A stretch of DNA of 50,499 nt from Psammoneis japonica (GCA_008632985.1 QPGO01000344.1:1-50499); one strand, 5' to 3'; positions 22,481 to 49,400 are shown, counted from the first letter of the stretch. Numbers and translations are program-made. Notes: a model not told the origin generated them from the sequence alone.

Positions 22481-22498
22481 AAGGGCCGCAAAGCCACA

Positions 22499-26805: not shown

Positions 26806-29800
26806 TGCAGCATGCCTCGCCACTGGACAACACGGCGAGACCATGCATGAGCCTCTTGCATGTGGCAATGCAGTGTTGTTAACATGCACCTGGGAAGCAC
26901 GACCACAGGAGGGCGTGGCTCTAGGTCTCAGGCAATCCCAGAAGGATGCCAAGAGAGCATCCGTGTGAAGCACACTGGCCCGTCGTCTGGCCCACGATGG
27001 CAGCGTGATTCCACACGATGACATCACTCATGCATGGCGCGTGATGGCTTGATTTGCACGATCCACAATGCGAGCGCACGATCGATTTGACACGATCCAA
27101 ACGCGAACGAACAGGGATTTAGCAAGATTCCCTGTTCGCATGATCCCATTTTCTCTGCTCTAAACTAGCTCACAATTTTCACAATGACAAAGTCGCAACA
27201 CATCTTCTTTTTCAGCACCCAGTGCACACATGGGGCACAGTGATGTTGATCCCGCATGTTGTGTGAGGTGACGAAATCTGCAGAAACGAAACTACGAAAT
27301 GTTGGCAGGACCGACAAATCTCAAAATGACCATGAAGAAGCACCATGAGTCCTCATTTGATGGGACATCAGGAGAATGGAAGGGAGAACCCCACCACATC
27401 CAACTCAAGGAGGGTGTAGAACCATGCCACGCTCGTCCGCACAAAGTGCCTCATGCGTGCGAAGCTGTGCCACGCAAAGAAGTGGAACGCCTGGCGTGCA
27501 TCGGTGTTCTCAAACGCATCAACCGATCCCAATGGGCAGCTCCATCATTTGTCACACCGAAGAAAGACTTAACGGCATGCTTCATCAATGATTTCAGAGA
27601 GCTGAGTGAACAGATCAAGCGATTGCCTCATCCGATTCCTGAGTGTCAATGTGCCGCAGGGCAATTGGTGCTTGTCAAACAGGAACAATCCTCTAAATGC
27701 GGTTCTGACAGCTGTGCAGGACCCGCCAGAGTTGTCCGTGCACATGACAACGGCACGTTGCGCATCCAGAACGGAGCGCTGATGGATGCGTGCAATCTAC
27801 GGCAGATTGTGCCCTGTCACCAGCAAGACATTCTGATCATGGGGGAGTGCACAGCATGCCTCGCCACTGGACAACACGGCGAGACCGTGCATGAGCCTCT
27901 TGTGCGTGGCAACGCAGTGTTGTTAACACGCACCTGGGAAGCACGACCACAGGAGGGCATGGCTCTAGATGATAAATGATGGAGCTGCCCATTGGGATCG
28001 GTTGACGCGTTTGAGAACACCGACACGTGCCAGGCGTTCTACTTCTTTACGTAGCGTAGCTTCGTACGCACGAGGTACTTTATACGGACGAGCGTGGTAT
28101 GGTTCTACACCCTCCTTGAGTTGGGTGTGGTAGGGTTCTCCCTTCCATTCTCCTAATGTCCCATCAAATAAGGACTCATGGCGTTTCAATAGTGCCAAAA
28201 GGTCGTTTTGTTGAACTGTAGAAAGTTTTATTGCCCCTCGCGTTATGTCCTCGAGGCAGGCCGGCGCGTACTTAGCGTCTAAAATACGTGAAATCCGGTC
28301 GGTTTCCGAAGATAAGTGTTCTGGATCTTGAAGATAGAAGGAGGTTTCCACCGTAGCATCTACGTGCCTCATTGGTACTTCTCCATTGACTAATGGCCAC
28401 TCTATCATCTGTTTAGAGAAGACAATATCAATGCCTTGTGTCTCCAGAATGTCACGTCCAACAATCATATCGTACTTGCCCAACTTTCCGTTGTGTACGT
28501 GGATGGTATGTTTAAGTTCTGCAGTTTCGGATAATTCTGGTAACCAAAATTTAACGGTACAGTCGTTAGACGTACTGAACGAGCCTGCTACCGTAGTCCA
28601 GTTTGTCTCAGCCGTTGAACGGCTTCGCAGACGCTTACAGTATCGACTATCGAGTAGAGTGCTGCTGGCGCCACTATCTAGTAGTGCCTTAATGGTTTGA
28701 GTCTTGCCCTTGCCATGTTTAGTGTTCATAGCCACAAACAAGATTGGAGTAAGATGAGTCTTTTTAACTCGTTTACGGGATTGGCCTACAACACGTGTAC
28801 GATGGTAATTCAGTTGTTCATTCACACATTCATCCAATGCATTAAAACTGCCTGCATTGTGTCGGCCCCCTTCTCAGGCGTCCGAATCTTCGGAATCACT
28901 TAAGTCGAGGTCGCGGAAGTGATTGAGCTCCTCCTCGCGTGCCTTGCGCTTTTTCTGAGCGTTGGCAAAGAACTCCTTGACCTTCGGTCCGATGAGAGCA
29001 TTGATGTCTTCCTCATTCCGAGCTTTTTTGTCAGGCTTGCTGCCTCCGTCATTGGAATGTGCAGTCTTGACACGTTTCACGTGGTGCTTGAGCTGACGGC
29101 AATCCTCCGTATGATGTCCACAGTCAGTCCCATGTGGCATGCACGACTTCTGGGTGTTCCGTTGGTTTGTGATCAACGACTCAGGATTGTCCGTTGTGCA
29201 TCCCCGCTTGCGTGGAACCTCAGCATGTTGGTCCAGGTCACCTTCGGCAAGCTCGACCTGCTCGATGCGCTCGCAGAACTGCACAAATTCGGCAATGGCA
29301 TGCGCCAACGGGTCAAAATTCTGCAACGTCATGAACTTCTGCCACGCGTTCAGCACACCGCACTCGAACATGTCGCACAGTTCGTCATTGGGTGATGGTG
29401 CCGGTGCTTCTCCATCCTCCGTCACGGGTGGAAACTGAGAGACACAGCCGTTAATTTCAACAGCCCTCTCAATGCAGTCATGAGTGGAAACCTCTGCGGG
29501 CTTGCGCATGAAGCGCCTCAGACAATGCTTCTGCAATGGTGCCGCCCTGTGTGGGAAGACACTTTCCTTTAGCTTCGCGACGCACACTGCGTGCGCAGCG
29601 TTGGTTTCGGATGCCTGCGTGTTAGCGGCATTGTTGAATGACGTCAGAGCATCGCCCTGTAGCAGGTCACGCATGAGGGCAAATTTCACTGGCCCGGTCG
29701 TCATGTTTTGTCCTTCGTGCACGCAATCCACGTTGCGTGGAAAGATCAGGAGTGTCTCGCATGTAGCCGCAGAAAGGCACGGGATGCCCATCTCGTGCAT

Positions 29801-30207
29801 TGGACTGTCCGGATCAGCAGGGTTGTTGTGCAGTTTGAACGTCTGGCACTCGCCCTGCTGTGGCTCTTTCTTCTCCGGCCGTGCGAACGGAATCGGCGGC
29901 TTGGTCCGCTTCTTCATCCCAAGAGAGCATCCGTGTGAAGCACACTGGCCCGTCATCTGGCCCACGATGGCAGCGTGATTCCACATGATGACATCACTCA
30001 TGCGTGGTGCGTGATGGCTTGATTCGCACGATCCACAATGCGAACGCACGATCGATTTGATGCGATCCAAATGCGAACGAATGGGAGTTTGGCAAGATTC
30101 CCCATTCGCACGATCCCATTTTCTCTACTCTAAACTAGCTCACAATTTTCACAACGACAAAGTCGCAACACATCTTCTTTTTCAGCGCCCAGTGCATGCA
30201 CAGGGCA
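26806..30207 (+). mobile_element. gypsy C copy 1, internally rearranged, 4-bp TSD CAAG
   Basis: LTR at 26806-27237, RT and integrase fragments at 27340-27830, PPT GGGGGAG, and a 3' LTR split into ~27850-27970 and ~29919-30207. CAAG at 26802-26805 and 30208-30211. Confidence 0.82.
27970..29918 (-). pseudogene. gag-pol: gypsy C gag, protease and RT start, inverted inside the 3' LTR
   Basis: ORFs 28874..30070 (Gag, knuckle CMPHGTDCGHHTEDC) and 27965..28837 (ALLDSGAS...WAAPSFII), homologous to 48850-50113. Confidence 0.88.
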
Positions 30208-33200
30208 CAAGATGCCAACAGTCCATTGCGCTTGGCCCTCAACATTGACAGGACAGACCACTGCTGGGATCTCTTCATGTTTGTTCTGGCCCAACTTGAT
30301 GCCCTGGTTTGCAATGATGGCACCAACCAAATGCCTTTGCCACGTGGATGCAAAGCACTCATTGTGGCATTGATTGGTTTCCACACCAAAAAAGGGCACA
30401 GTGGTGCCAATGTCAACAACAACCCCACTTTGTTCACACCCGAACAATTCACTGACTGTCATCTCAGTGCTGACTGCATCATGTCTCTCTCCACATCACT
30501 GGCACAACCCCATCTGCTCCTGCACCTGGCTTGTTGCCCCCTGAACCATGCAACCAGTGCATGACTTCAAACAAGGCATCAAACATGACCCACTTGCCTT
30601 TGCAACCCTCATGTCTGACAAACAGTGGCACATGTGGCACACTTCCATCATTGCACAGGCTTGTTCTCAGGATGTTGACCACATTCTTGATCCAAAGTGC
30701 AAGCCCTCTACACTTGAAGACAAGGCATTGTTTGATGAACAACAGAAGAGCATGCTTGCTGTCTTTGAACACATCTTGCAAAATGACAAAGGCGGGGCAC
30801 TCATCTGTGAACATGTCAACTCATCCAATGCCCAAGCTTTGTGCCGCGAACTCTGTGACTGCACCCTTGCATCCACCTGTGCATCACTTGAGTCATTGAG
30901 CCTTCTCACATGCATCACCACCACCCGTCTTGGTGATGGCACTTGAAAAGGTTCCACCCAGGTCTTTGCACTTCACTGGCAAGACCAACTCTGCAAGTGT
31001 GCAGCTCTTGTCTCAACTGCAGACCATTTCTCTGCTGGCAAGAAACGTGTCATGCTGGAAAATGCCATTCATCTTGTCAAAGAACTCCATTCTGTCAAGA
31101 ACCAAGCTGACCAGTGTTGCACACAGAGTTGCAAGAGCCTTTCCCATGAGTGACATTGTGGGCTCCAGCTTTCTGTGGCAGCACAGTGTGACAGCACTTT
31201 TGCACCCAAGACAGCATCTTGCACCACACGCCGTGCCATCTGCACCCATGACCTGGCCCCTGATGGCCCTGATGATGACGCATTCTTCAACATTGATGGC
31301 AACGTTGATGTCATCCAGGCTCCTGCTTCTCAAACTCATGGCCCATCCCTCACCAAAGAACAGTGGCACTGCATTCCGCCAGATCACCAGCGCATCTGGG
31401 ACACCCTGCCTCAGTCCACCAAGGCCATCATCCTTGGCTCACACACCACCCATTCTGGCAACTGCCATGAGTTTGAGGCTGTCAACCTTCATGAACTCTG
31501 TCTGGGAAGCGATGGTCACGTCGACTCATCTGCCAACACCCACGACCTTGCCTCCACTCCCATGGTGCCCGCTGATGCCACCAACCAGACAGACGCCAAT
31601 CCCATCCTGGCACACCTCACAAAGTGCAAGTCTTTCCCCCCCGGCAATCTGCAGCATCTCTTTTTGCCCAACAAACCTCCTTTGGCGTGCTCTGGTGTGA
31701 ACACCCCTGGTCTGACATCCTCACCTGGAGCCAGCACTGACACTGAGATCAACAGACACACTTGGCACTGCGTGAACAACCACAGCATGATCTGCTCTGC
31801 TTCAACCTGCACATTGACATGCTTGGGAACTCTGGTGGATGGTGGTGCCAATGGTGGCACAGCTGGCAATGATGTTCATGTCATCACATGCACTGGCAGG
31901 CAAGTTAACGTGCAAGGCATTGACAACCACCAACTTGTCAACATTCCCATTGTCACAGCTGGTGCTGTCATTGACATGCAATGCAGTCCTGTCATTGCCA
32001 TCCTTCATCAGTGCACCTGCACTGAAAAGGGCAAGACCATCCACTCTTGTGGCCAGCTTGAATGGCACAAGCACGATGTCAATGACCGGTTGGTCAAGTT
32101 TCCCATGGCCTGCAATGCATCACCACCATCAATGGCTGCATCATTCCCATCAACACCAAAAGCGGCTTGCCCCACATTGCCATGTGCCTGCACACCAACT
32201 CTGAATGGGACAATTTGCCTCATGTTGTCCTCACTGGCAATGACACCTGGGACCCGTCTGTGCTCAATCACCAGTTCAGTGACAACAAGAACTGGTGTGA
32301 TGCCTGCCACAACCCTGTTTGACGAGTTTGGCAACTGTCATCACAGCCACATTGTGAACAATGCCATGCTCACAGACTCCATCCTCCATGACCACCTCAC
32401 CCCGATGTCTGATTTCTTCTGTGAGTGCCATGAGCATGAAATCAAACCCAGGGATCCCAACCATGAGTCCCTGTGCTCCCATTTTGGCTTCCTCCCCAAG
32501 GACACTGTTTGCCACACATTTGATTGCATGGCTCAATTTGCCTGCATGCCTGCCAGCACATGTCTCAAAAAGGCATGCAAGTCACCCAATCTGGCCCTCA
32601 ATGTCCACTGATGCAGTGAGCCTGTTGCCACTGACACAGTGCATTCCAACACTCCTGCCATCAACTCTGGATGTGTCAGTGCACAACAGCTCTTTGTTGG
32701 TGTTGAGTCCCTTGTCACAGACATGTGTGGCACCAACACGGAGGACAAGGAATTTGTCAACACTCTTGAGGACAACATTTGTGACCATGGTGCTCCCTCC
32801 AAGCTCATCAGCAACTGTGCTCAAGTTGAGATCAGCAACAAGGTTTTTGGTGTCCTCTGTGCTCTCTTTGTCTCTGGTTGGCACAGCAAGCCCCACCAGC
32901 AGCACCAGAACTTTGCTGAGTGCCACTGCCAAACCATGAAAAACATGGCCACCACCGTGTGTGTGTGTTTTCTGCTCAATCACACAGCGTCTGCCAAGCT
33001 TCACTGGTGCACTCCCACTGAGGTGCTGTCTGGCTCTACTCCCAACATTGCCCCCCTCCTCTGCCTTCAATTGTGGGAACCAGTGCACTGCCACTTGGAT
33101 GATTCTGACTGGCCGTCTGAATCCCGTGAGTTGCGTGGTTGCTTCAGTGGGATTGCTGAACATGTGGGCCTTCAAACAACTTTCAAGATTCTTTCTAATG

Positions 33201-35611
33201 ACACCCAGAAGATTCTCTGCCAGTCCAACATCCGTTCTGCCAACAGCGACCCATCAACGTGCAACCTGCATCTTGATCCTCCTGATGGGGAGATTGCTGC
33301 ACCCATCATTAAATCCCGCCATGACTCTAAAGATTCACCAGATTTGTCAGATGGGGAGGAGATCAGGATGCCCAAGATGCCAGTCTTTGACTCCAAGGAC
33401 ATCATTGGACATGCCTTCCTCATGAAGCCACAGCACAGGAAATGAGAATTGGTGGAATCGAACAGAACATGTGCTTTTTCTCCTCATTCCATTTGTTCAT
33501 TCCACAAAAAATCAGGCCATTTTTGTGTTCTGTTTTGGGCTTTTCTGTGGAACATGCCCTCACATTTCAGATTAAAGTGTCAGCAATCTTGGAACACCAT
33601 GGTCACATTCCGTTCCAACCACCAAGACAAGTGCACTCCATTTTCATGTGGAATGTGAACTTGAAAATGGAATGACCGCTTCATTCCGTGCACAGGACTG
33701 AGGTCAATGGATTTTATTTTCAACAAAATGCAAGAACGGTGTGCCATTTGTTGGCACAGAGCATGTGTTGAGGCAAAAAACTGCAGCGAACAAACATTGT
33801 CTACATTGCCAATGTCACCACTCTGTTGTTTCATGCTCTCCATTCATCCCTCTGTGATTTTTCAAGTGACCACAGTGTCAAGATCAATGGTGAGCAAGAT
33901 GTTTGATGCTGCAATGCTGCTGCAAGACTGCTGCATTGCGTCTCATGGCATTTTTTGGTCTTCGATCATGGAAAATGTTGTGGGACATCCACATCTGAAA
34001 TTTAATTTTAACTTGTTGTTCAGTGAAAAAGATGGTGAGATGTTGACAGTTAAAATGTTTGACAAACATTGGAGTGAGAATCCTGAAATAAATGTTAAAT
34101 TTGTTCTTGCTTGTGTGTTGCAATGTGGTGTGAACAAATCAAGGACTTTGGAAAGAAACAACTCAAATCATGCAAGTGATGTGTTGATGTCAAAAAAAAG
34201 AAGGAAACATTTAATGACCATGCTCCGATTCATTTGACAGTGCTTGGAAAGACATCATTGAATTCTGTGTGACTTTGATTCCTCTGTAGTGGATGCGATG
34301 ATTTGTGCCGTTTTTGGATGTTTTTGATGACTTTGAAATGGGGGAACACTTGAGGGTCGCGCACTGGAGTTTTTGACACCCGGACCCATTTTGGTGCACG
34401 CCTTCATGTCTGTAGAATGCACTAAAATGTCAACGGTCCAAATCAAATTGTGTTTGGCATCTCAAAAGTGTTCCCCCATTTCGGTTCCTTGCCAATCAGA
34501 GAAATGAGGCGCAACATTTGTCATTCTAACAAATGTGTGTGTTTCAATGATCACACCTAAAACTTGCACCTCATCTTCCAAACAAACCGTTGGTGCTTGC
34601 CCCCCCCATTCTCCCCCCTGTGGAACAAGCAGACTCTCAGCTCTCCATCGATGCATCACATGTGGGGCTGTTGTTCGTACAAAATTTCAAGTGATCATTG
34701 ACATTCAACATCACGGCACCAGAGGAGAGGATTTGCATCGCAGCTACATTTTCTCACACTTCTTCTTGTTTGCTCTCATAAAAACGCAACACACCAGTGG
34801 CAGAGCACATCTGAAGCAACAATGGCAAACAATGGGAAGAACAACAGGATGAGTGAGTGGTGTGATTTGTGACAATTGCAGCACACATGATGGCAAGTTA
34901 TGGTGTGATTGTGCAGCACTTCTGAGTGAATGCTGATGTGCTGTCACGAATGTAGGCAGTTTACATGCTGTTGGCGATTGGTCCACTGTCGCTTGTTCAG
35001 TGGCCCCAGCAGCGTGACATCACACAATTCTAGAACCTGTTGATGCTGTTCAACACTCTGTCTTGTCTCACACCCAATTCTTAGCTGTCATGGCAGCATT
35101 TATTCACTTTGTCAGAGCCAACACGCTATGATGTTCATCGCCTGGAACGGGCATCGCGAACGGTGCGACGGTGTCCCATGGTTGCTCGCGCAATCGCTGA
35201 GTCCTTTACACATGTCAATGTTCATGCATGTGAACGATGTGCTCTTGGAGAACAGAGCTGTGATCCGTTAGACATGACGTTAGTAGACGGAATGTTTGAT
35301 CACATGGATGGAACATGTTGGCTAAGGCACACAAACATTCGTGATGAAGACAACACAATGATTTGTGCATTGAGGTCTGCCATTTGATCATGTGCATTTC
35401 ATTAATCTAAAAACGTTTTGAAATTGTTTAGACACTGCACATGTGGACACATGTCTGTTGGACATTGTCACTTGGGAGTAACACCGCCTGCTCGCGGGTT
35501 TGCTAAGTAGAAACCGCCAAATCGGCACGAGAACCACACATTTTTCTCACTTTCCTCCACTCACACAAGTGGATGCTCACGCGTCGAAACGCGAATAACT
35601 GCTGATGCACC

Positions 35612-37093
35612 ATGGCCGCTGCCGCAGCCTTTGCTGCCTGTCTTGCGCATTGTGGATGCAATGTGCAGACGCGCAACTGCACAGCCAGCCAAGGCTTTAC
35701 TGCTGTCGAGGACCTGGAACAGGTCCCTTTGATGGAAATCACCGACATGACTGAGGGCATCATGAAGAGTGTGGACACCGCCGCTGACCCCCAAGTCCGC
35801 TTTCCACACCTGGCGAATCGCAAGCTCAAGGCACTGCGCGCATGGATTGACTGCCGCAGAGCCCGAAACCAAGAGCCAACCACTGCACTCTTCGCTGGCG
35901 ATGTCATTGGAACGTGGACGGCACGTCTGACGGAACTGGAGCAATTCAAGTCCGCGGACTCGGACAATGAATCGGCCACCAAAACGGCCATTGAGCTCAA
36001 GAACCCACATGACTGGCCTGCCTTCCAAGAGCTGCTGGAGACCGAACTGCGTCATCACCGCAGTGCCGTCACCGGAGTGCCCTTCATCTGCCCAACTGGG
36101 GAACATGAAGAGGTCACTGCCGAGATGTTGGCTGCCACCTGCACTGCCATTGACGAGGACCTTGTTGCCACTGCTCGCCTTGCAGGAACTCAGCACACGC
36201 AGGATGGGCAACGCCTGTGTGATCTCTTGAAGAAACTGGTGACAGGGGGGCCCGGATGGGCTTTTGTCAAACCTTCCAATCACAATCGCGATGGTCGCAC
36301 TGCTTTCTTCGCACTTCAGAGGCAGGTGGAAGGATCGGCTGCTGCCACCACCCATGAGAACTGTGCTTGTGCACAGATTGCCACTGTGAAGTACACTGGA
36401 CGGGGTCGATTTACCTTTGACCAGCACATTCAGCGCCATCAAAAGGCTCACAACGACTTGTCTGAGCTTGATGAACCGGTGGCCGAGACCAAGAAGGTCT
36501 CTGACTTTCTGAAGGGTGTCTCCGACCCCAGGTTGGAAACTGGCAAGAGCGCAGTGGATGGAGATCCGATGAAGCTAGCAGATTTCGAGGCATGCCAGCA
36601 GCACATGAAAACTCTGGTCGAAAATGCCAAGAACCGCAATGCTGACACTCGCGGGATGGCATCCATCCAACGCCGCAACAACCGGCACAGCAACCCTGGT
36701 GGGAAGCACCAACCTAAGAAGGATGAGCCCAGGATCCGGGCAGGCCATCATCCCATTGAAGAGTGGAATGCTCTTGACGGTCCCGAATGAGAGCAAGTCC
36801 AAAAGCTCCACGATGCCAAGAAAGCCAAAAAGAAATGCAAAGCTGCTGCTGCATCCTTGGAGGCTGAGTCGGTCGATGCCAAAACTTGCGCTGTGAAGAA
36901 AGCAGCCATTGCCGAGCCCACTCCCCAACCTGCTGATAAACCGAAAGACTCTGAAGAGCCTGACAAACCTGCCGCCAATGCAGGCACCCAGTTTGGACGC
37001 AGTGTACACAAGAAACCTCAGAAGGTGTGTCGCTTCAATTCATTCATGTCAAACATCCTGTCACAACGAGAATGTCAGACGGACAGTCGATGA
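35612..37093 (+). pseudogene. gag: copia B gag
   Basis: 392-aa ORF with RDGRTAFFAL, YTGRGRFTFDQHIQRHQKAHNDL and KKVSDFLKGV. TGA at 36788 is probably from CGA. Confidence 0.8.
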
Positions 37094-37190
37094 TGATGAA
37101 TGCGACCAGGTGTGTCGCTTCCATTCACTCATGCCAAACGTCCTGTCACAACGAGAATGTCATCATGGACACTGATGACGACGATTCTTT
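37023..37190 (+). repeat. ~85-bp imperfect tandem duplication at the gag/pol boundary
   Basis: AGGTGTGTCGCTTC..TCCTGTCACAACGAGAATGTCA occurs twice (37023, 37108). Confidence 0.85.
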
Positions 37191-37299
37191 GTGTCACCGC
37201 CTGGTTGCTCAGGCAAATGTCTCCCACAACGACACTGAGGGAGACGGGCTACACGACCGGCATGACCTGGATGGTCCACCCGGATTGTGCCGAGTGGAA

Positions 37300-40200
37300 A
37301 CGGGTGTGTGCACTGTCGACCTCGAGTCGTGCATCAACCATTGCGCCCGAGATGCTCTCTAAAAGGTGGAACATTGGCCTGACGGCCGCTAAGAACACCC
37401 TTAGAGTGATGACCCAGGCAGGGGTCCGTAATGTCTGCACACCATCCGAAAGGAAAGTCTGGAAGAAAGCCCCTTGGCTTGAGTTCCCTGCTGTCAAGGG
37501 ACGCTTCTACTCCGACCAGATGTTTCCGAAGGTCAAATCGATGCATGGCAAGATGGGAGGAAGCGCACTTGCCAACGGAAGAGGGCATGATGGGCTCCAT
37601 CCTTGGAAGAGGAAACAGGACCACCCGGACGCTGTCATGTCATTCACACATGACGTTGGCATGCCGCAGGTCCTTGTGTCGGATGGCGCTCCGGAAATGG
37701 CAGAAGGCCAGACCAAAGAGATCTGCAAGGAATGCAGGACACACCAGGAGGTGTCCACCCCGCACAGCCCCTGGCAGAACCCAGCCAAGGCATCCATTCG
37801 TGAGTTGAAGAAAAGAGTCCGTGTGACTCTACGCCGGACTGGCGCTCACAGGCGACTTGGTCCCACAGTGCCAAATGGACATGTGACATCCAACGCATGA
37901 TTGCGACTGGCATGTCGGACATGGGAGGATGAGTCCCAGAAGAGGAGGTGACAGGTTCGACACCCGACATCTCGTCCCTCTCTCTCTTTGATTGGTGTCA
38001 ACCTGTTTGTTGCTGTGTGCCTGTGACGGAGTTCCCACACGAAAAGAAGTGCATTGGCCGTTGGCTCGGAGTGGCTGACAACTGCACTGATGACATGGCA
38101 TTCATCATTTTGCCCGAATCAGGCAAACCCATCATTTGGAAGGATGTGTGGGCCACACCGGAGGATGACCTTAAAACTCTGGCAATCCAAATGGATCTTG
38201 CATTGGTCAATCAAGCTTTGATCGAACGGCTTAGCATCCTGGAAAAGGACGCCAGTGCTGACTTCCCTGAACTCCCTGATGACTTCATGGACGAATGGGA
38301 CGATGTTGTTGAACCCGTGGAACCCGACGCTTCCCAAACCGGAAGCTGATGAGCACACCCCGGAAGGGCTAGATGAGTGTCTCACAGCTCAAGTCATGTC
38401 ACCACGCGGAGGCGAGCTGACTCATGCTAGGGTCATTGCACACAAGCGAGACAGCGACGGGGTTCCTGTTGGTGCTAGGAGTGACAAACCTGTCCCAGAC
38501 TCGAGGACATGCGATGTGGAATTTCCTGACGGATCCACTGATTCCTGCACTGCCAACGTAATTGCAGAGAACCCATTCGCTCAGATCGACTCTGAAGGGA
38601 ATGCCTGCCAGATCATGAAGGAGACAGTCGATCACCGACGTGATGCCCGTGCCGTAACGGCCGATGACGGCACATGACGACTGAGACTGGCAGGCGTGCT
38701 CCCAGGAGGATGACCGCAGGCTGGGACCCACAAGTTAAATGGAAGGATGGGACCACATCCTGGGTTCCTCTCAAGGATTTGAAGGAGTCCAATCCAGTTG
38801 AGGTTGCTGAGTGCACTGCAGCAAACAAAGTGGCCCAGTGAACCAGCCTTTAACTGACGGGGTCCGAGATGTCTTGCGTTGCAGATCAAGGATCCTGAAG
38901 AAAGTCAAATCGCGTCACTGGAAATGCACGCATGAGTTCGGAATTGAACTCCCGAAATCTGTTGAGGAAGCTGTGGAAACAGATGACAGAATGGGGACCG
39001 ACTTCTGGTTCAAGGCTGTTGAGAAGGAAATGCCACGATGACGATGCTGTGCCGGTCGGGTGCAAACATGTTGATTGTCACATGATTTTTGACATCAAGA
39101 GCACCCTCCAATGTAAAGCGAGGTTCCTGGCCAGAGGCCATCAAACCGATCCACCCAAGGAATCGACCTGTTCCAGTGTGGTGTCGCATGACAGCGTTGG
39201 GACAGCATTCACTGTGGCAGCTCTGAATGACCTGGAGGTCCTGAGCGCTGATGTTCAGAATGCCTGCTTGAACGCACACACTGGGGAAAAGTGTTGCACC
39301 ACTGCTGGCCTGGAATTTGGGAAGCAGAACGAGGGAAGGCTGGTGATCATTGTCCGTGCCTTGCATGGTCTCAAGTCTTCAGGTGCAAGATTTAGGGAAC
39401 ATGTGGCAGCTGCTCTGCAGGATGCTGGGTTCGAGTCTTGCAAGGCTGACCCGGATGTCTGGATGCGAGCTGCGGTTAAGCCGGATGGCTTCAAGTGCTG
39501 GGAATGTGTGCTTGTCTGCATGGACGACTTGTTGTGCGTCTCCCATGAACCTCAGAAGGTCATGGATTGTGTGAGCTCCAGGCACACGCTCAAGGACGGA
39601 AGTGTCTGCAAGCTGGAAGAGTGCTTGGGCGCCCAGATCAGAAAGCACCAGCTGTCTGAATCGGACAGTGAGACACACTGGGCTGTGTCCTCTGACCTTC
39701 ATGTCAAAAGGGCATTAGCTGACGTTGAATTAGAGCTTAAGAAAACTGACAGGCGTCTTCCGATGAAGGCGTCGACGCCCTTGAGCTCGGGACACAGGCC
39801 TGAACTGGATGGCTCACCTGAGTTGAACGCAAAAAACGGCTAACTGCTGTCAAGGCCTCATTGGTGTGCTGTGGTGGGCAGTTGAACTGGGACGAGTGGA
39901 CATTTTTGTCGCTGTCTTGCTCATGTCCTCCCACTTGGCAGCACCACAAGTTGGGCACCTGGACAAGGTGCTCCATGTCTTCGCATGCTTGAAGGCTCAT
40001 TCTAAGTCTGCGCCAGTGTTCAACGACACTGAGCCCGTCTTTGATGAGAGTCACTTCACCAAGTGTGATTGGGAAGAACATTGCCCTGGCGCGGCTGAAC
40101 CAATGCCGCCGAATGTGCCAGAGGCACGCGGGAATGGCGTGACTGCCACTTGCTTTGTCGATGCTGATCACGCCGGATGCCGTGTGACGCGCAGGTCCCA

Positions 40201-40607
40201 CACTGGGATCCTGACGTTTGTCCAACAAGCGCCCATCTTGTGTTGCTCTAAATGGCAGAATGCCGTAGAGTCCTCCACTTTTGGGTCGGAGTTCGTGGCT
40301 GTGAAGACTGCAGTGGAGCAAATCGAAGCCTTCTTGCGTTGCAAGCTTTGGATGCTTGGAATCCCCCATGGATGGGGCCACCAACGTTTTCTGCGACAAT
40401 GAAGCTGTCTTCAAGAACTCAACTAAACCGGAGTCCACTTTGAAGAAGAAGCACAACGCAATTGCCTGTCACAGGACTCGTGAGGCACAAGCCGCTGGAA
40501 CAGTGCACATTGCTTGGGAAGACGGACGCACGAATCTAGCGGACGCACTAACCAAGTTGTTGCCTGGACCGAAGCTCCGGGAAATCATAAGTCATGTCCT
40601 GTGGTGA
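37300..40607 (+). pseudogene. pol: copia B pol (integrase, RT, RNase H), multiple frameshifts and deletions
   Basis: PHSPWQNPA..IRELKK, KARFLARGH, ADVQNACLNA, RALHGLKSSGA, CMDD, DADHAGCRVTRRSHTG and NLADALTK. Confidence 0.92.
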
Positions 40608-41577
40608 GTCCCAAAAGGGGACAAACCGAATGGGTTTGCCGCACAGGTGCGGCTTTTCCCACCCCCAAAATGAAAGCACTGCAACAGGGCAGCATCAGGT
40701 TGCATTTGTCTGTCGATCTGGCCCAAGCGGAGCTAGTGTCAGTTCGAGGGGACTGAACAAATGCTGATGTGCTGTCACGAACACAGGCAGTTTACATGCT
40801 GTTGGCGATTGGTCCACTGTCGCTTGTTCAGTGGCCCCAGCAGCGTAACATCGCACAATTCTAGAACCTGTTGATGCTGTTCAACACTCTGTCTTGTCTC
40901 ACACCCAATTCTTGGCCATCATGGTAGCATTCATTCACTTCAAAGGTTGATTGCACTCACATTTTCTTCTCTCTTTTTGCGGTTGGGGTTTGTTTCCAGA
41001 GTCCAGAGGGTTCTGGTTCCGAGTGCAGCTGCTCCACTGCTGAGAGAGTGGCACCGCATCATCGACCACTCTGGTTTTTGGCAAAACAGATGTCTGGACA
41101 GTTGCATCCATCAGCAGCCCGTAAGTGCAAGCTTCATTTTCCTTTTTCTGTCACATTGGACGTGTTGCTCACTTTTAACTTTGTCACATGTTGCTCATGT
41201 TTGGGAAAGGTTGAAGTGCCCCTTGTCATCCATTGGGCACCCCAGACAATCAAAAGAAGGAATGCATCATTCTGAGATTTGGCTGAGTGGTGCAGCGAAG
41301 CGATCAGTTGTGCAAATGCAGGCACAGCACCAGCGTGGGCAGAGCAGGAGATCTTGCTGTGCAACAGAAATGCAGCAGCACAACAATTTGACAATGTGGC
41401 CAAGAGGTCTCATGCACTCACTCCTTTGACCAGACTCACTTCATCTAAAGTTAAATGGCAATGGATGAGCATGGAACAAAAAGCCTTTGAAAATGTGAAG
41501 CGAACCATGTCAAAAGATGTGTCATTGTCACACCCAAATTATGACGAACCCTTTGAGATGTGTGCCAATGCGAGTGA

Positions 41578-44500
41578 CCTTACCTCCGCACATACAATGA
41601 TGACACAAATGTTGACATTTCCTCCGCAGACAGGTCTGACAGCAGGCCTGGCACTCAACCATTGCCTTGCTCCTCCCACAAGACTTTGGGCCACTGTGAA
41701 GCTCCGGCTGGAACGCAAAAGATTCACTGCAAGGCCTCAAAGAAGAAGAGTGATGATGTGGCCTTGTTTCTTTGCTCATGCCCATTAGATCGTCACAAAG
41801 CATGGACCCATTGCTTCACGTGCTGCTTGGCAGCAATGACTTGCACCCTTCCGAACACCCATTTTCTCCCCAAAGAACTGTCAGAGATCCAGAGGAAGGC
41901 CATGCGTGCAATCTTTGCGAAATGTGGACACAATCGTAACATGAAACAAGATGTCTCATTTGGCCCACATTCCCTTGGAGGTGGTGGTTTCTGGTCCATG
42001 GATGTCGAACAAGGAGTCAGCCAAGTCATGCAGTTCATGTCTCACTGGAGAGGTGTTGGTCAGCCACATGCTCTTTCATGGATCGCAGCATCTTGGGTTC
42101 AGTTCCATCTGGGTGCCGGTGTCAGCTTTTTGAAGGATGTGCACTCCCGTCCACCACATTCTGAGTCGAAATGGTTCAGTTCACTTAGATCCTTCCTCTC
42201 CCACATCAATGCTTCCTTCAACCCAGACGAACCTGGAGTCCTTCCACTTCAACGTGATGATGATCAATGTCTCATGGACATGGCACTTGACTCAAGACTT
42301 TTCTCTGACAAAGAGGTCAAATGGGTCAACTGCTGTCACCCATTTCTCAACGTCCTCACAGTTTCGGATGTCACCTCACCCGACGGCAGAGCACTTGACA
42401 AGCACAAGTTCCACGGACACACCTCAGTTCTCAGTGGCATTTCAACATTGAACCAAGTTGAACAGGCAGCCCCATCTGCTAGAGCATGGAAAACAATGGC
42501 AACGTGCCTGCAGGTTGTTGTGCAAGAATGACAATTTAGAACTTCAAGGCCCCCTTGGCTCTTGGGCAATTCCAGCGACGGAGATGTGCATGACCTTTCC
42601 AGCATGCCACGAACCCAATGAAGATTGTTTGCATGTAAAGACGTGTTCCAGTCCCAGGTGACGCACAAAACGACAATTTATTTTGAATGTAATTTATGTA
42701 TCTTTTAGTGTATGTAGCATTTTCATATAAAATACTTAGACGGATTGACTTTTATAGACCTCTAGAGTATGAACATTTAAATATTTTTTTGAGGGGTATT
42801 CAAGTCCTAATGGGATATGTATCATAAACTTCCTCAGTAGACTCAATACTGATTGTACGTCAGTAGATTTATACTGAGATTTCTTTGTAGGTAGAAAACC
42901 TACCAAGTAGCATCGTAGAAAGATATATTTAGGTAACATCCAAATAACGGCAATATTTTCGCCGAAAATCATCCGTTGTGTTACGAATCTTTTAACGCAA
43001 TGAAAAACATAGATAGCACAATAACAATGATATTGCAACACTCACACGAGTCTTGTTAGTGTTGCAAAACATTTATATTTGTATAAATCTATACTTTTGG
43101 TGGTGAAAGTTCGATCGTAAGTTAGGGACCGCGCAAAAATCGCGCAAATGTCGTTTTTGTGCACGATTTGGTTCACGTGCGGCTGGAACACGTCTAAAGT
43201 CGGACACGGGGTTTCAGGTTTTCCCCATTTCTCATGGCTCCGCCCAATCTGTCGATCCTCTCAAGGTTGCACCTGATCTGTCTCCGAGGGCTTCTCCAGC
43301 AATGGCAGATGCCAGTCGAGATGGCCGGTGGCATGTCAGACACACTGGTTCTTCATTCGACCTGCCTCCCACCATGCTGGTTCCTTCAGACTTTCAAGCT
43401 TGGCTGTCATCATTGCTGCAATGGGAGTCATTCCTCTTTGCCAACGTGCACCTGCACGCACCTGTCTTTGAGATTGCACACTGCTTGCAGATGTGCCGGT
43501 CAACAGCTGGCAGCGATGGGTCCGTCATCGGAAAATGCAGCAACTTTCGGCTGGACTCTCACCATCAACAGTGTGGCACTGGCCAACTGCACTGGTCCAG
43601 TGTTCGGTTTTTGCCTGACTTCTCACAGAGCGGAAGCATGTGGGGCACTGTCACATCTGCGATTCTTAATTTGGGTGATGGAATGTTGTTTTACAAGCTG
43701 TCCTCTGGGAAGCGACCTGTGCTGCGATAACTCAGCCATCGTTTGCCGCGTGTCAAAGTTTGAGGCACCGTTGTCAAGCTCCCCTGTTCAGGAATCAGAC
43801 TCTGCATTGCTCGACTTTCACCGCAGAAGTCACACAGCGAACACCACATCTACCGATTGGGATGTTGCCAATGAAATTTACTTGTCAATGGAAGAGATGT
43901 CTACATCATCCACTGAGAACACTCCATGCACTTCCGTCTCTGTTCAGTGGATTAAAGGACACCAGGATTCTAATGCTCCATATGAGACACTTTCTCTACC
44001 TGCTAAAGTGAACATCCGGGCTGACAAGATCACTGGACAACATCACGGAAAGTTCCAGGGCAACACCCTGCTCGTGCCGCGAATGCCTCGTTGTTCCGCG
44101 AATCTGGTCTTAAACAATTCCACAGTGGGATCCAAGTTTAAGCAGGTGATGCGATACGAAGCATCTCGCCCGGCACTTGTTCCACACATGAAAGAGAAAT
44201 GCTCATGGACAGAAGAAGTGTTTCAGTCTATAGATTGGGCTTCTCACTCCAAACTCATGTCGAGGAACATCAGACGAAAGATCAGCACGGTCAAATTGGT
44301 GCAAGATTTGCTTCCTGCCAACAAGACAGCGCATCAGTGCAACCCAAATCGCCCAGACGCTTGCACACATTGCTCACACCCAATGGAGGATCGTGATCAC
44401 ATTTTAAAATGTCCTCATGACGAGTCATGGTGCAGCATCTTCCTTCAAGGCCTGCGCAAGAAATGTGATGACATCTGCACTTCCCCTCCCTTGCGTGATC

Positions 44501-45200
44501 TTCTCTTGGAAGCCCTTGAAGCTTGGTTTTGTGATCAAATGGCATTTCTGGAGGACTTGCACCACAGTGTTACATCGGTGTTCTACTCCCAGGATCTGAC
44601 AGGATGGAGGCAAATTTTTAATGGCAGATTTGCCGTCCAATGGAATGCTGCTCACGCTTCGCACCTCAGGAACATGGACCTTCCTTCTGATGTGGAGGAG
44701 AACATCTGGAGATTGGATTGGTCAGCTGCCATGGGAAGCTTCATTTGGTCTCAATGGTGGGAGCCATGGGATCAACATGATGATGCAGTGCATGGTCACG
44801 ATGCGGAGACGAGGAAATCAGCCCAACGGAGAGATGCAGAGGCGGAAGTCAAGGTCATTTGCTCCAGATCAAGCGAACATCTTGCAAAGGACAGGTCTGC
44901 CTTGTTCGACTTGGTGGAAGAACACTCAACTCATTCTGCTCACAGATTGCAAAATTGGTTGGAAATGGTGAGACCCATGTTTAAATCCAGCATCAAGGAG
45001 GCGAAACGGCTCGCAGTGAGGGGCACTCATGCTGTCACTGGTTGCTTCAGTGCGGCATCACCTGAGGGTGATGCTGACACAGGCTGATTGCCACATGCCC
45101 CTGCCGCACACATGTGCACTGGGGGTGTGGGTTAGCTTGTTGCCGGAGTTGCTGGGCGGAAGTGCAACAGCACCTTAAAAACAGACGTTGGGTTTTGTTT
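41578..45200 (+). mobile_element. 5'-truncated non-LTR retrotransposon (post-RT region, RNase H, CCHC finger), ~19-bp TSD, (GTTTT)n-like tail
   Basis: TGTGTGCCAATGCGAGTGA at 41559-41577 and 45201-45219. Motifs FGPHSLGGGGF, SDGS, SHRAEACGALS, WIKGHQD and CTHC..EDRDHILKC. Confidence 0.88.
42640..43194. mobile_element. MITE / non-autonomous DNA transposon, 12-bp TIR GACGTGTTCCAG, TSD TAAA
   Basis: Perfect TIRs, with TAAA at 42636-42639 and 43195-43198. Sub-terminal inverted GCACAAAACGACA and an AT-rich interior. It interrupts the LINE ORF. Confidence 0.88.
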
Positions 45201-46020
45201 TGTGTGCCAATGCGAGTGATGCTCAATTGGGGGCAGTTGCAACTCAGAACAACCAACCCATTGCTTTCTGCAGTCACAAGTTAAATCCAGCACAGATGTG
45301 CTGCACTGCAATGGAAAAAGAACTCTTGTCCACAGTTGAGACACTTAAAGAATTCCGGAACATCCTGTTTGGCCAACAGATTAAGATGCGTGCAGATCAC
45401 AAGAATCTCACTCATAAAAATTTCACAATGGACAGAGTCATGCATTGGCAACTGATGACAGAAGAATGCAGTCCCAAAACAACCCACCTTGAGGGCAGGG
45501 CAAACGTCATTGCAGACACAATTGGCCGACTTGCTGTGAAAGAAACACCACCTGTGGAAACCTTCAGCACTGAAGATTTGGCTGAAAAGGTTGCTCCTAG
45601 ATCCTGCAACAATGTTTTTCTGTTAACACACAAAGTTCTTGACACTGAACAAAAACAGGATAAAGGCATTCTCTCCAAATTGTCCAATGAGACATTTTGT
45701 GCAAAGACTTTTTGTGGAGGCGAGCGAGACCAGTTGCTCACATGTCAAAAGGACAAAATCGTTGTTCCAAAGACGTTACAAAAAGTGGTGACAGATTGGT
45801 GCCATGTGCATCTTCTGCACCCAGGCACAAACAGGACTGAAGAAACAATCTCACAACACCTGTGGTGGTCCACCATGCGTGAAGACATGTGAAAATGCGT
45901 GTCGAAGTGTGAGACATGCCAAAAATTCAAGAAGAAACCAAAGAAACATGGGCGTTTGCCTCCTGAATGCATGGAAACCATGCCATGGGAATGACCATGT
46001 GTGGATCTCAATGGACCATG

Positions 46021-46452
46021 TGCCCCATGCATGCACCAGGCGCTGAAAAAGAAGATGTGTTACGACTTGGTCGTTGTGAAAATTGTGAGCTAGTTTAGAG
46101 CAGAGAAAATGGGATCGTGCGAATGGGGGATCTTGCCAAATCCCCATTCGTTCGCATTTGGATCGCATCAAATCGATCGTGCGTTCGCATTGTGGATCGT
46201 GCGAATCAAGCCATCACATGCCATGCACGAGTGATGTCATCGTGTGGAATCACGCCACCATCGTTGGCCAGACGACGGGCTAGTGTGCTTCACACGGATG
46301 CTCTCTTAGCATCCTTCTGGAATTGCCTGAGATCTAGAGCCACGCCTTCCTGTGGTCGTGCTTCCCAGGTGCGTGTTGACAATGCTGCGTTGCCACGTGC
46401 AAGAGGCTTGTGCACGGTCTCGCTGTGTTGTCCAGCAGCGAGGCATGCTGCA
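46021..46452 (-). repeat. gypsy C LTR (~432 bp, ends uncertain by 2 bp)
   Basis: Homologous to 26806-27237 and preceded by PPT ATGGGGGAG. Confidence 0.88.
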
Positions 46453-49400
46453 CACTCCCCCATGATCAGGGCCGTCAAGTGACAGAATGTCCCACTGGTG
46501 ACAGGGCACAATCTGCCGTAGATTGTACGCACCCATCAGCGCTCCATTCTGGGTGCGCAACGTGCCGTTGTCACACACACGGACAACTCTGGCGGGTCCT
46601 GCACAGCTGTCAGAACCGCATTTAGAGGATTGTTCCTGTTTGACAAGTGCCAATTGCCCTGCGGCATGTTGATGCTCCTTGCGTTTCTGATTTTCACGCT
46701 TGTCATTTAAGTGGACAAGCTTCTGCTTTCTGGTTTCCATGCACTTCCACTTGGCACGATGGGCAACAGATGAAACTGCATCGCGTCCAAAGACCAATTG
46801 CATGGGGCTTGCACGCGTGGTCGTGTGTGCCGCAGCTCCAATGGCGAAGGCTGCTGCGGAGAGGATGCCACTCCATGGGTCATCTTCATCCAGTTCCACA
46901 TCCTGCACTGAAAAGGAACGTACCATGTCACCAAGTGTCTGGTGCACACGCTCCACTGTGGCATTCGCCTGTGGATTTCGCTCACTCATGGGTTTCTTCA
47001 AATTCCCACAGTCATTTTTAATCATCTGGCTAAATTCTGCCATAAATTCTGTCCCACGGTCATGAACTGCCTGGGTTGGCCACGGATGTCTGCATGGCCA
47101 CGTTTGTTCAACGACGTTTGCTATGATGTCTGCGCGTTTCGTAGACACTTCTTTAATCTCAAACCACCCGGTTGCTGGGTCGATCATTGTGACTGCCCAC
47201 AATTGCAGAGTGTCCTTTCCGCGTCTTTGAATTTTACATGGCCCTGTCATGTCTGTGCACAGAGTCTCCCATGGAATTATCTCAGCGACCTTTTCTGGCA
47301 GCTTCCCATGACGCTGCATTCGGCGTTTTGTCTTCTGACATTGATTGCACTTAACGCACGTAGAATGCACCGTAGACCTCACACTGGGCCAGCAGAAGTG
47401 CTGGGCAACAGACATTTCCGTGCGTGTCTCACCTGGATGACACAGTGTCTCGTGGCACCATTCAGTTAGCGGAACCTGCAATGACTGTGGTGCTGCGATT
47501 TTGTCCTTATGACAGATTAACTGTCATGATGACCCTCCCCCACGATGCGCGTGAATGGAGTAGTCGGACGAGTCCTCAGCTCGGGAAAGTAGGCGCTTGT
47601 CCTTTTGTTGTTCTTTTTGAATGCGCTTGAAGCTAACAGGCAGAGAGACATCGTCTTGCGCGTCTGCATTAAAAGCTTCATGCAAAGGATGACTCGATGG
47701 AGTGTCTTTTACATCCGGATTGGCCTCGGAAGGCAAGCTGGGTGCTAGCCGAAGGCGACTAAGAGCGTCAGCGACTAGGTTATGGGTACCCTTAACATAG
47801 CGTAATTCGGGACCGTATTCTTCGCATATTAACCGCCAGCGCATAACGCACTCGGTATTGAATACTTTGTACGTAAGATTTTTATGATCAGTATATACAA
47901 TTATACGATGACCAAGGAGAATCGTTCGAAATTCTTTCAACGTCTCCACAATGGCGAGTAATTCTCTCTGCGTTGTTGTATAATTTAATTGCGCACTATT
48001 AAGCTTTCTGCTATAAAAGGCGATAGGTTTATCATCTTGGGATATAACTGCTCCCAATTGATATTTAGAGGCATCGGTAGGTATCACAAAGGGTTTATTA
48101 AAATCAGGATGTGATAATAAAACATCATCCGATATTACCCGTTTAACGGTTTCGAACGCCTCGTCTTCAACGGACGTCCACTCCCACTTAACAGTCTCGC
48201 TTACGAGTCGTGTTAGCGGAGCCAAGACTTCAGGACGTCTAATCCACGTGTCGCGGCAGTAGTTCACCATACCAATAAATGACCGTAGGTCGCGTTTATT
48301 GGTTGGGGTCGCGATTCGCTTAATGGCGTCGACTTTATTAGGTATTGGTCGTATTCCGTCTCTGTTAACCAGATAACCCAAGTGTTTTAATTGGGTTTGA
48401 CAGAAGTGAAGTGAGATTTAGTTGCGTTAACTTTTAGTCCTGCTTTCTGGACCCTCAATAAAACTTCTTCAAGTTTGTTGAGGTGATCTTCATAGGTGCC
48501 TTTCGTCACGACGAGAAGGTCATCTAAGTACGTTCGAACGAACGATAGATCTTCAAATAAGCCTGACATGCGTTCTTGGAAAATGTCTGGCGAATTACAT
48601 AACCCCATGGGCAATACCTGCATCTCATACTTGCCCCACGGGAAGATGAGCGTGCAGAGCTTCTTGCTATCAGCATCCAATCGGATATGATAATAGCCCA
48701 TATTTAAATCCAGAGATGTAGCCCACATAAAGCCTTCGAGCTTAAGGAGCATATCTTGGATATGAGGAATCGGATAAGGCAATCGCTTGATCCGTTTATT
48801 CAGCTCTCTGAAATCATTAATAAAGCGTACCGTTAAGTCTTTCTTCGGTATGATAAATGATGGAGCTGCCCATTGGGATCGGTTAACGCGTTTGAGAACA
48901 CCGATACGTACTAGGCGTTCTACTTCTTTACGTAGCGTAGCTTCGTATGCACGAGGTACTTTATACGGACGAGCGTGGTGTGGTTCTACACCCTCCTTGA
49001 GTTGGATGTGGTAGGGTTCTCCCTTCCATTCTCCTAATGTCCCATCAAATAAGGACTCATAGCGTTTCAATAGTGCCAAAAGGTCGTTTTGTTGAACTGT
49101 AGAAAGTTTTATTGCCTCTCGCGTTATGTCCTCGAGGCAGGCCGGCGCGTACTTATTGTCTAAAATACGTGAAATCCGGTCGGTTTCCGAAGATAAGGCT
49201 TCTGGATCTTGAAGATAGAAGGAGGTTTCCACTGTAGCATGTACGTGCCTCATTGGTACTTCTCCATTGACTAATGGCCACTCTATCATCTGTTTAGAGA
49301 AGACAATGTCAATGCCTTGTGTCTCCAGAATGTCACGTCCAATAATCATATCGTACTTGCCCAACTTTCCGTTGTGTACGTGGACGGTATGTTTAAGTTC

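Follow-up and report, generated by a model that had tools for sequence, protein, structure and literature searches.

An LTR pair in Psammoneis japonica suggests TpA-specific mutation after insertion

Results

The window, i.e. the whole stretch of 50,499 nucleotides from Psammoneis japonica that was analysed, carries at 34923-40937 a dead LTR retrotransposon of the Ty1/copia type, which stems from a single insertion. The element, of which all features are given on the plus strand, has a 5' LTR (34923..35106) and a 3' LTR (40754..40937) of 184 bp each with TG...CA ends, and is flanked by the target-site duplication CTTC (upstream copy 34919..34922, or ACTTC if the terminal A of the LTR is included; downstream copy 40938..40941). 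A purine run, GAGGGGA (40746..40752), lies just 5' of the 3' LTR, where it would function as polypurine tract. The LTRs enclose the relic of a copia polyprotein (37045..40604), aligned by tblastn in seven pieces and three frames, and collinear with residues 194-1384 of a homolog of 1384 amino acids (P0001). A stop-free frame (38899..39843) encodes RVT_2, the reverse transcriptase domain of Ty1/copia elements (PF07727, E 6.3e-9), and a further homolog (P0038) combines PF07727 with the integrase domain PF00665. Because CTTC flanks both sides and a copia polyprotein relic is enclosed, the LTR pair stems from one insertion; the TG...CA ends, the duplication and RVT_2 within a copia-like polyprotein place it in Ty1/copia.

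The motif TCAGAGC, which resembles a tRNA-iMet primer-binding motif, is found 3' of the 5' LTR. The primer-binding site was considered as a marker of polarity, with TGTCAGAGCC read as a TA>TG change of TGGTATCAGAGC, a motif that is frequent in copia elements. This was dropped, as the 80 related copia loci lack such a conserved site: they hold 13 matches to TCAGAGC, consistent neither in position nor in preceding bases. Elsewhere in the window, the long frames at 41578-45087 had no match in Pfam. A second, LTR-like pair (19243/24861) has an interior (19243-25311) that gave no retroelement domain in Pfam; the single match, Y2_Tnp (E 0.0036), fell below the cut-off of that family, which leaves the pair unproven as an LTR element.

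A repeat search recovered the copia LTRs as one pair of direct repeats (34922-35109 and 40753-40940; 93% identity, 5831 bp spacing). Gap-free alignment of 34923-35106 with 40754-40937 bore out the original observation of 184-bp LTRs that differ only by transitions: 13 of the 184 columns differ, across 34926-35101, and there is no transversion. Five differences are TA in one LTR versus TG or CA in the other, and six form three dinucleotide swaps with TG in the 5' LTR versus CA in the 3' LTR (34927-8, 34951-2 and 35086-7 in 5' LTR numbering). The remaining two are CG versus CA (35022/40853) and another transition that is not at TpA (34926/40757). The division that had been proposed, i.e. 11 TpA, one CpG and one other, is right as a count of fits, with six of the 11 also fitting CpG. 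When 13 transitions were placed on the LTR at random, at least 11 fitted TpA in only 10 of 100000 trials (1e-4; mean 4.0). The inferred ancestral TA sites that changed would be five in the 5' LTR (TG at 34927-8, 34951-2, 35015-6 and 35086-7; CA at 35094-5) and six in the 3' LTR (CA at 40758-9, 40782-3, 40784-5, 40917-8 and 40932-3; TG at 40913-4), so that both products, TG and CA, are present in each LTR. All sequence examples quoted in support (GAATGTAGG/GAACACAGG, CTTAGCTGTC/CTTGGCCATC, TGAGTGAAT/TGAACAAAT and ATTTATTCA) were found as written. The argument from the terminal inverted repeat (TGAATAAAT) is plausible but carries little weight, since the ends of LTRs can depart from perfect 9-bp inverted repeats.

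Taken site by site, a TA ancestor and a CG ancestor fit the three swaps equally well, and 12 of the 13 differences allow a reading as C>T or G>A as well. Such a reverse direction, from CG or CA/TG ancestors by methyl-CpG decay and RIP-like CpA>TpA change, would draw on a process that is real in this DNA, as CpG is depleted in the window (observed/expected (o/e) 0.58) and CpG accounts for most G:C>A:T changes in the gypsy pair described below. Nevertheless, the likelihood of the swaps favours TA over CG ancestors (log-likelihood difference 3.57), with 1.56 visible swaps expected from TA and 0.03 from CpG. The CpG sites of the LTRs, four of which were retained in both copies versus one altered, likewise make three double-hit CpG sites unlikely. 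In addition, the three swaps lie in the flanking contexts in which TA is lost fastest across the window.

The direction of change is visible in the codons of the element. Among 556 codons that are conserved in 65 homologs, 124 differ in the relic, and 24 of the 27 conserved Tyr codons (TAY) now encode Cys or His (TGY/CAY; 17 Cys, 7 His, with one Tyr retained). The opposite change, from conserved Cys or His to Tyr, was found at 0 of 17 positions, all conserved Cys (6/6) and His (11/11) being retained. The single-step changes in the relic comprise 25 TpA>TpG and 15 TpA>CpA, next to CpG decay of conserved Arg (to W five times, to H four times and to Q three times) and 28 transversion-type changes. 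Tyr codons were altered more often (24/27) than the TA sites of the LTRs (~0.64, support interval 0.41-0.83), a gap that may be caused by a preference for certain flanking contexts.

A comparison of 'before' and 'after' copies was possible for a gypsy segment. The 'after' copy (27337..27640, plus strand) lies in a TA-depleted tract and has two TA remaining; the 'before' copy (48765..49068, minus strand), with 25 TA, lies inside the RT frame, still intact, of a gypsy element. Between 27337-27640 and the reverse complement of 48765-49068, all 22 sites with TA versus TG or CA keep TA in the intact copy, and this TA-rich copy is the one that has intact RT/RNase H frames. The 36 differences divide into 28 A:T>G:C changes, 24 of them at TpA and four elsewhere, and eight G:C>A:T changes, of which seven are at CpG. 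Two 1.1-kb gypsy copies, 94% alike and 21 kb apart, are both largely unmutated. The mutated tracts are local and adjoin DNA of normal TA content with sharp edges: in 200-bp bins, an observed/expected TA of 3/9.1 gives way to 14/12.5 at ~28000, and 15/13.9 drops back to 3/11.9 at ~28800. Transitions also prevail in the two other LTR-like pairs that had been proposed as checks. Pair 19243/24861 shows 39 transitions among 40 differences, with 11 swaps alongside 8 TA-versus-TG/CA and 9 CpG-type sites, and pair 872/1208 shows 11 among 13.

The composition of the DNA is in line with this. TA is depleted in the element (o/e 0.185) and the window (0.218), with values of 0.0-0.3 across most of the 50 kb, and TG and CA are at 1.4-1.7; in the 80 related copia loci, TA o/e is 0.46-0.92 (median 0.71). 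Relative to these loci, the survival of TA depends on its context, from 0.03x for ATAT to 3.25x for TTAA, and TA was lost fastest when followed by a pyrimidine, above all T. The number of LTRs changed per site correlates with the window-wide loss rate for its flanking bases (Spearman rho -0.66, permutation p 0.023, n=10). A forward model gives the LTR ancestor 10 TA against 13.8 expected (o/e 0.73), while the present LTRs have five and four against ~12.3 expected. Because the Tyr codons, the gypsy pair, the TA content of the 80 relatives, the swap likelihood and the swap contexts all point the same way, the TA ancestor that was originally proposed is supported, though indirectly, with the ancestral base inferred at each of the 13 sites. 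A second copy of this LTR was not found in the window (self-blastn), and a degenerate pattern of the LTR had 0 matches in metagenome contigs. The reverse direction, which would enrich rather than deplete TA, is strongly disfavoured, to the point of having a negligible probability. It is likely, judged from these substitution patterns and apart from any enzyme, that the LTR differences are changes of TA to TG or CA that followed insertion.

The timing follows from the pair itself. The LTRs of one element are identical when inserted; since they start identical and both products occur in each of them, the changes arose after insertion and on both strands, which agrees with the original claim of change in chromosomal DNA. 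Editing before integration, by a deaminase that acts on the single-stranded intermediates of reverse transcription, is a minor rival. In that case the 5' LTR would have been edited as plus-strand strong-stop DNA and the 3' LTR as minus-strand DNA, and the ratio of TG to CA products (4:1 in the 5' LTR, 1:5 in the 3' LTR) has the direction expected from such editing. We did not accept this opposite strand bias as evidence of cDNA editing, since it falls short of significance (Fisher p 0.08), rests on three swaps that are not independent (the single-hit sites being 1:1 and 1:2) and is absent from pair 19243/24861. Moreover, the same changes run across element borders over nearly the whole 50-kb window and cut gypsy copies at sharp edges, which makes editing before integration very improbable compared with change in chromosomal DNA.

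The per-LTR probability of change was estimated at ~0.64 for TA, ~0.10 for CpG and ~0.006 per copy for other sites, so that, very roughly and with wide intervals, TA mutates ~100x faster than background and ~10x faster than CpG. It had been foreseen that LTR-divergence dating would be inflated here, and indeed 13 of 184 sites differ overall versus 1 of 78 outside YR dinucleotides. The corresponding K2P distances (0.076 overall versus 0.013 outside YR steps) amount to a ~6-fold inflation of the LTR divergence.

We also considered the public run data, which consist of contigs only, from three runs of one sample, with no RNA run found to contain the window. Run X1, the one public run in which it occurs, contains 0.46 of the sampled 31-letter words of the window and 850 contigs that match it at 99% or more; run X3 has no contigs matching the window. 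X1 may be the source of the assembly itself and is therefore perhaps not independent of it. These data bear on a sequencing or assembly artefact, in which a modified base at TA in repeats would be misread as TG or CA and the LTRs would truly be identical. The 40 differences listed out of 698 take in a single LTR site pair out of 13 (35022/40853), and at 35022 the window letter is in 0 of 18 contigs, all 18 having T; here the letter of the window lacks support, as the artefact would have it. Widespread miscalling of TA is, by contrast, hard to square with the shared words and the 850 closely matching contigs, to the extent that X1 is independent. The frame shifts of the polyprotein, the transversion-type changes and the CpG decay are those of a truly decayed copy, and unmutated tracts with sharp edges lie inside the same repeat family. 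Taken together, an artefact is very unlikely.

The same contigs bear on gene conversion, by which some of the LTR differences would have been imported from independently mutated copies of the family. Such donors are plentiful, as the family is abundant (6115 X1 contigs match the window with at least 85% likeness) and 626 of the 691 variable places in X1 contigs over the window are transitions. However, no conversion tract is visible in the LTR differences, which are scattered over the repeat and free of transversions. The other copies carry T at 35022/40853 and neither LTR does, so that a recent import at that site is unlikely. We consider gene conversion quite unlikely as a source of the differences.

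Discussion

TA is probably rewritten in mobile DNA of this diatom-like genome far faster than by ordinary mutation, and several known systems invite comparison. RIP, known from Neurospora and other ascomycetes, is a C>T process, mostly CpA>TpA, that enriches TA. The DNA studied here resembles RIP targets in that dense transitions are limited to repeated or mobile DNA, transposon genes are killed and tract edges are sharp. The direction is the opposite: we found TA>TG/CA, which destroys TA and increases G+C, rather than the C>T at CpA by which TpA is gained. A further difference is that the two similar gypsy copies were both largely spared, which is unexpected under simple sensing of duplicates. 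Methyl-CpG decay of transposons likewise has TG and CA as its products and contributes here at a slower rate; it is certain for one of the 13 LTR differences, and the loss of TA and the change of Tyr to Cys or His are outside its reach. APOBEC3 and ADAR edit retroelements that are not yet integrated, as cDNA or RNA, which would leave both LTRs alike or one strand struck. They share with the present case a context-specific hypermutation of retroelements, there driven by a deaminase, and differ from it in that the LTRs here diverged after insertion and on both strands.

The closest parallel, and the one report of the same signature found in the literature, is a preprint on Bigelowiella natans, whose text describes A>G/T>C hypermutation only at TpA, seen directly in mutation-accumulation lines, in the integrated DNA of giant viruses and virophages (Mettrop et al., bioRxiv 10.64898/2026.01.13.699255). 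As described there, the changes are, with few exceptions, A>G/T>C at TpA, giving TpG or CpA depending on the strand, and they strike foreign or mobile DNA locally, in clusters that are depleted in TA and enriched in CA and TG, just as we observed. The host there is a chlorarachniophyte and here a diatom-like organism, and the process here strikes LTR retrotransposons as well as other repeats. The depletion is also far deeper here (o/e 0.0-0.3) than in the viral region reported for B. natans (Rho 0.45), it is accompanied by CpG decay and a bias towards TA with a pyrimidine on its 3' side, and it was deduced from fixed differences instead of mutation-accumulation lines. The main text of the preprint names RIP as a comparison and has 0 occurrences of diatom, LTR or retrotransposon (bioRxiv 10.64898/2026.01.13.699255). 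Full-text literature searches for an earlier description of TA-specific hypermutation in diatoms found none.

The process would act on chromosomal DNA of a repeat-rich region and convert TA to TG or CA after integration, each change being an A:T>G:C transition, i.e. A>G on either strand, and the two LTRs would have been altered independently. As to the chemistry, adenine in 5'-TA-3' could be deaminated to hypoxanthine, which is read as G, by a TadA/ADAT-like enzyme aimed at silenced repeats, as proposed for B. natans. We put this forward tentatively, as a possible mechanism. U-A-C is the context of TadA, and the preference for a pyrimidine after TA resembles it. The attack could instead be on T, by a modified thymine at TpA (of the 5-hydroxymethyluracil type) that mispairs with G or by error-prone repair at TpA, giving T>C; TA>CA and TA>TG are mutually complementary, so that the attacked base is not readable from the sequence. 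We regard an attack on T as unlikely, in line with the authors of the B. natans preprint, who in its text favour adenine deamination, with an ADAT2-like candidate (bioRxiv 10.64898/2026.01.13.699255). The motif of TA followed by a pyrimidine can be compared with the preferences of candidate ADAT/TadA-like deaminases.

Conclusions

If real, this would be the second, and a far more saturated, case of TA-specific hypermutation of mobile DNA, and one from a major algal lineage. The LTR pair provides its timing (post-integration) and rough relative rates without an experiment. The ages deduced from LTR divergence are inflated here. Repeat libraries and gene finders would be misled as well, because TAA and TAG stops are lost and long frames without stops arise. 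TA o/e could serve as a simple marker for silenced DNA. A broader reading, which we regard as rather doubtful, is that a diatom-like alga has a dedicated DNA-level defence, which deaminates adenine in either strand of integrated transposons, within 5'-TA(Y)-3', at ~100x background, and that this is an old 'reverse RIP' common to the SAR group, since the same signature is found in a chlorarachniophyte. If true, such a 'reverse RIP' would have raised the G+C content of the affected genomes, erased TAA and TAG stop codons from them and made their LTR clocks unusable.

Structure of the copia element and differences between its LTRs

The interval 34923-40937 is one LTR retrotransposon, a dead Ty1/copia element. 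Its LTRs are direct repeats on the forward strand (34923-35106 and 40754-40937) with TG...CA ends, CTTC is present at both flanks and a purine run precedes the 3' LTR. The interior contains RVT_2 (PF07727, E 6.3e-9) and, split into seven pieces and three frames, follows residues 194-1384 of a 1384-aa copia polyprotein in collinear order. A search of longer proteins gave 432 relatives with E <= 0.001 among 4238 candidates, with a top identity of 66%; a relative at 56% identity is labelled as coming from the diatom Fragilaria crotonensis.

A gap-free alignment of the LTRs (184 columns) confirmed the 13 differences of the original prediction, all 13 of them transitions. TA in one LTR faces TG or CA in the other at five sites, three adjacent-site pairs (six sites) read TG in the 5' LTR and CA in the 3' LTR (hereafter swaps), one site has CG versus CA (35022/40853) and the remaining transition lies at 34926/40757, so that the split into eleven TpA-fitting, one CpG and one other difference is right as a count. 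When 13 random transitions were placed on the LTR, at least 11 were TpA-fitting in a fraction of 1e-4 of 100000 trials (mean 4.0).

Direction of change

Pairwise LTR comparison cannot give the direction of change: read in reverse, the same differences look like CpG decay combined with RIP-like CpA>TpA mutation. No third LTR copy was found inside the window, and a degenerate LTR pattern had no match in metagenome contigs. The direction was therefore based on the coding relic, a before/after pair of gypsy segments, the relatives of the element and the LTR composition.

Among the 120 homologs listed for the relic, the 65 with a length of 1300 aa or more were compared with it. A codon counted as conserved if 20 or more of them covered it with an agreement of 70% or more; this left 556 codons, of which 124 have changed in the element and 432 have not. 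Only one of the 27 conserved tyrosines is kept, the others having become Cys (17, TGY), His (7, CAY), Phe (1) and Leu (1); none of the six Cys and 11 His that are conserved has changed. The single-step changes comprise 25 TpA>TpG, 15 TpA>CpA, 14 CpG>CpA and 5 CpG>TpG (plus 6 ambiguous), next to 11 other transitions, 2 possible double hits, 1 further ambiguous change, 28 transversions and 17 multi-step changes.

In the before/after pair, a segment in a depleted tract (27337-27640) matches 48765-49068 in reverse complement. The latter belongs to a stop-free frame of 589 aa that encodes RVT_1 (E 3.3e-24) and adjoins frames for an RNase H and an integrase zinc-binding domain. All 36 differing sites are transitions, the intact copy has TA at 22 of the 22 TA-versus-TG/CA sites, and it contains 25 TA against 2 in the other copy. 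Changes from A:T to G:C occurred at TpA in 24 of 28 cases (T>C followed by A in 16, A>G preceded by T in 8), and the remaining four are A>G preceded by A or C; seven of the eight G:C>A:T changes are at CpG.

In metagenomes, 282 copia loci related to the element were confirmed, and the best 80, a set thus biased towards intact copies, have a TA o/e of 0.46-0.92 (median 0.71), versus 0.185 for the copia element itself. The two LTRs now have 5 and 4 TA; with the differing TA/TG/CA steps reset to TA, the LTR has 10 TA versus 13.8 expected, and the resulting o/e of 0.73 is inside the range of the relatives.

The three swaps and the sequence context of the target

Because CpG decay is real in the element, the swaps, which fit a TA or a CG ancestor, were tested separately. 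Outside the swaps, two TA sites are kept in both LTRs and five are hit in one, and four CpG sites are kept in both and one is hit in one. By maximum likelihood, a TA site has been hit in a given LTR with probability 0.64 (support 0.41-0.83) and a CpG site with probability 0.10 (0.01-0.40). If hits are independent, TA sites should yield 1.56 visible swaps and CpG sites 0.03, and TA ancestors are preferred by 3.57 units of joint maximised log-likelihood.

The swaps are flanked as ATAA, ATAT and CTAT. We compared the contexts of the 377 TA surviving in the depleted parts (1-27900, 29101-42000 and 44001-47000) with those in the 80 copia relatives. Survival varied strongly with the flanking bases: relative to these loci it was 0.03x for ATAT, 0.13x for ATAC, 0.32x for ATAG, 2.2x for CTAG, 2.5x for CTAA and 3.25x for TTAA, and T follows TA in 0.078 of the survivors versus 0.308 in the relatives. 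ATAT accounts for a single survivor; TTAA, CTAA and CTAG are over-represented. In a lightly mutated gypsy pair (27969-29091 / 48850-49978) a pyrimidine follows the changed A in 13 of 18 hits. These contexts suggest that the target would be a TA step with a pyrimidine 3' of it, as read on the strand hit. Over the ten visible LTR sites fewer LTRs were hit where context survival is higher (rho -0.66, one-sided permutation p 0.023), a test with negligible circularity, the LTRs holding 9 of the 377 survivors.

Timing, strands and LTR dating

It is well established that the two LTRs of an element derive from a single template and do not differ when it integrates; copy-specific hits therefore postdate reverse transcription of the shared template. 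Both strands had been claimed to be hit, and each LTR indeed carries both products (TG 4 and CA 1 in the 5' LTR, TG 1 and CA 5 in the 3' LTR). The opposite bias of the two LTRs is what editing of the reverse-transcription intermediates (cDNA) predicts, yet it comes from the three swaps, with single hits at 1:1 and 1:2, and the repeat pair 19243-19695 / 24861-25311 lacks such a bias, leaving cDNA editing a minor rival to mutation after insertion.

The inflation of LTR dating was borne out too. At the 78 sites outside any TA/TG/CA/CG step there is one difference, and the K2P distance is 0.076 over all sites versus 0.013 (that single difference) for these 78, so that dating the LTRs in the standard way would overestimate their age about 6-fold. 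Taken together, post-insertion TpA mutation is supported as the interpretation of the LTR differences.

Other repeats in the window

The pair 19243-19695 / 24861-25311 has 40 differences, with 39 transitions, 8 TA-versus-TG/CA sites, 11 swaps and 9 of CpG type. No retroelement domain was found in its interior, and it may therefore not be an LTR element. The pair 872-992 / 1208-1328 has 13 differences (11 transitions, 1 TA-versus-CA, 3 swaps, 1 CpG-type). These 121-bp direct terminal repeats belong to an insert of about 448 bp at 871-1318 that splits one repeat copy, the other copy (12005-10040, reverse strand) being uninterrupted; the insert may be a miniature terminal-repeat element.

Three successive stop-free frames of a Ty3/gypsy element on the reverse strand (46306-50156) encode RVT_1, RNase H and integrase zinc-binding domains. 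The TA content of this element is normal in the middle (about 47600-49700) and depleted at both ends. A second, rearranged gypsy copy (27969-29307) has kept TA at about 28000-28800 only, and the right-hand edges of the two copies (about 28800 and 49700) lie at homologous positions. Of two inverted-repeat arms with some 415 bp between them (27337-27554 and 27970-28187), one is mutated and the other is not, which places a tract edge between them; the arm ending at 28187 keeps all 13 TA-versus-TG/CA sites and five of the six CpG sites.

Composition of the window and public contigs

The window has 50% G+C and non-neutral dinucleotide o/e values (TA 0.218, CG 0.579, TG 1.56, CA 1.62). TA o/e is at least 0.56 in five 1-kb bins only (28-29 kb, 42-43 kb and three across 47-50 kb) and 0.0-0.37 in all others. 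The tracts 13001-19000 and 30001-34000 combine a CpG o/e of 0.14-0.39 with a TA o/e of 0.0-0.14; the copia element has a higher CpG o/e (0.67). This is consistent with CpG decay as the slower of two processes within the same tracts.

One public sample was available, as three runs, all of contigs. Run X1 may consist of the data from which the assembly was made, and these contigs are thus no independent proof against artefact. The run contains 0.46 of the sampled words of the stretch, 6115 of its contigs match at 85% likeness (850 are at least 99% alike) and 626 of 691 variable places are transitions. At 35022 and 40853, among the 40 of 698 rows listed, the LTRs have A and G and other family copies have T (18 and 44 X1 contigs); the element's lineage is thus unlike the family at this site, for which CpG decay is just one of the possible histories. 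In run X2 one contig connects 34886 with 40999, five other letters lying between (about 92% likeness); it is a relative of the flanking repeat without the copia element.

Relation to known hypermutation systems

The process mirrors RIP in reverse and lacks its defining feature. The signature in the window matches that of Bigelowiella natans, for which mutation-accumulation lines gave about 6e-7 mutations per site in two integrated viral regions, with A>G/T>C in 20 of 20 and 210 of 211 mutations, all on TpA; clusters of TA-depleted windows are described and an ADAT2-like candidate is named, and the main text of that preprint makes no mention of diatoms, LTRs or retrotransposons (Mettrop et al., bioRxiv 10.64898/2026.01.13.699255). 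A full-text literature search found no description of such hypermutation in diatoms.

The 7 kb surrounding the copia element (34500-41500) contain 42 frames of at least 80 aa, counting both strands, and there are very long ones without a Pfam match elsewhere, e.g. a 629-aa stop-free frame in 43198-45087 (forward strand). Long stop-free frames would be expected if TAA and TAG stops have been erased, and they are a trap for gene finders. Most likely, the window adds a new host and a new class of target to a kind of hypermutation that was described only very recently.
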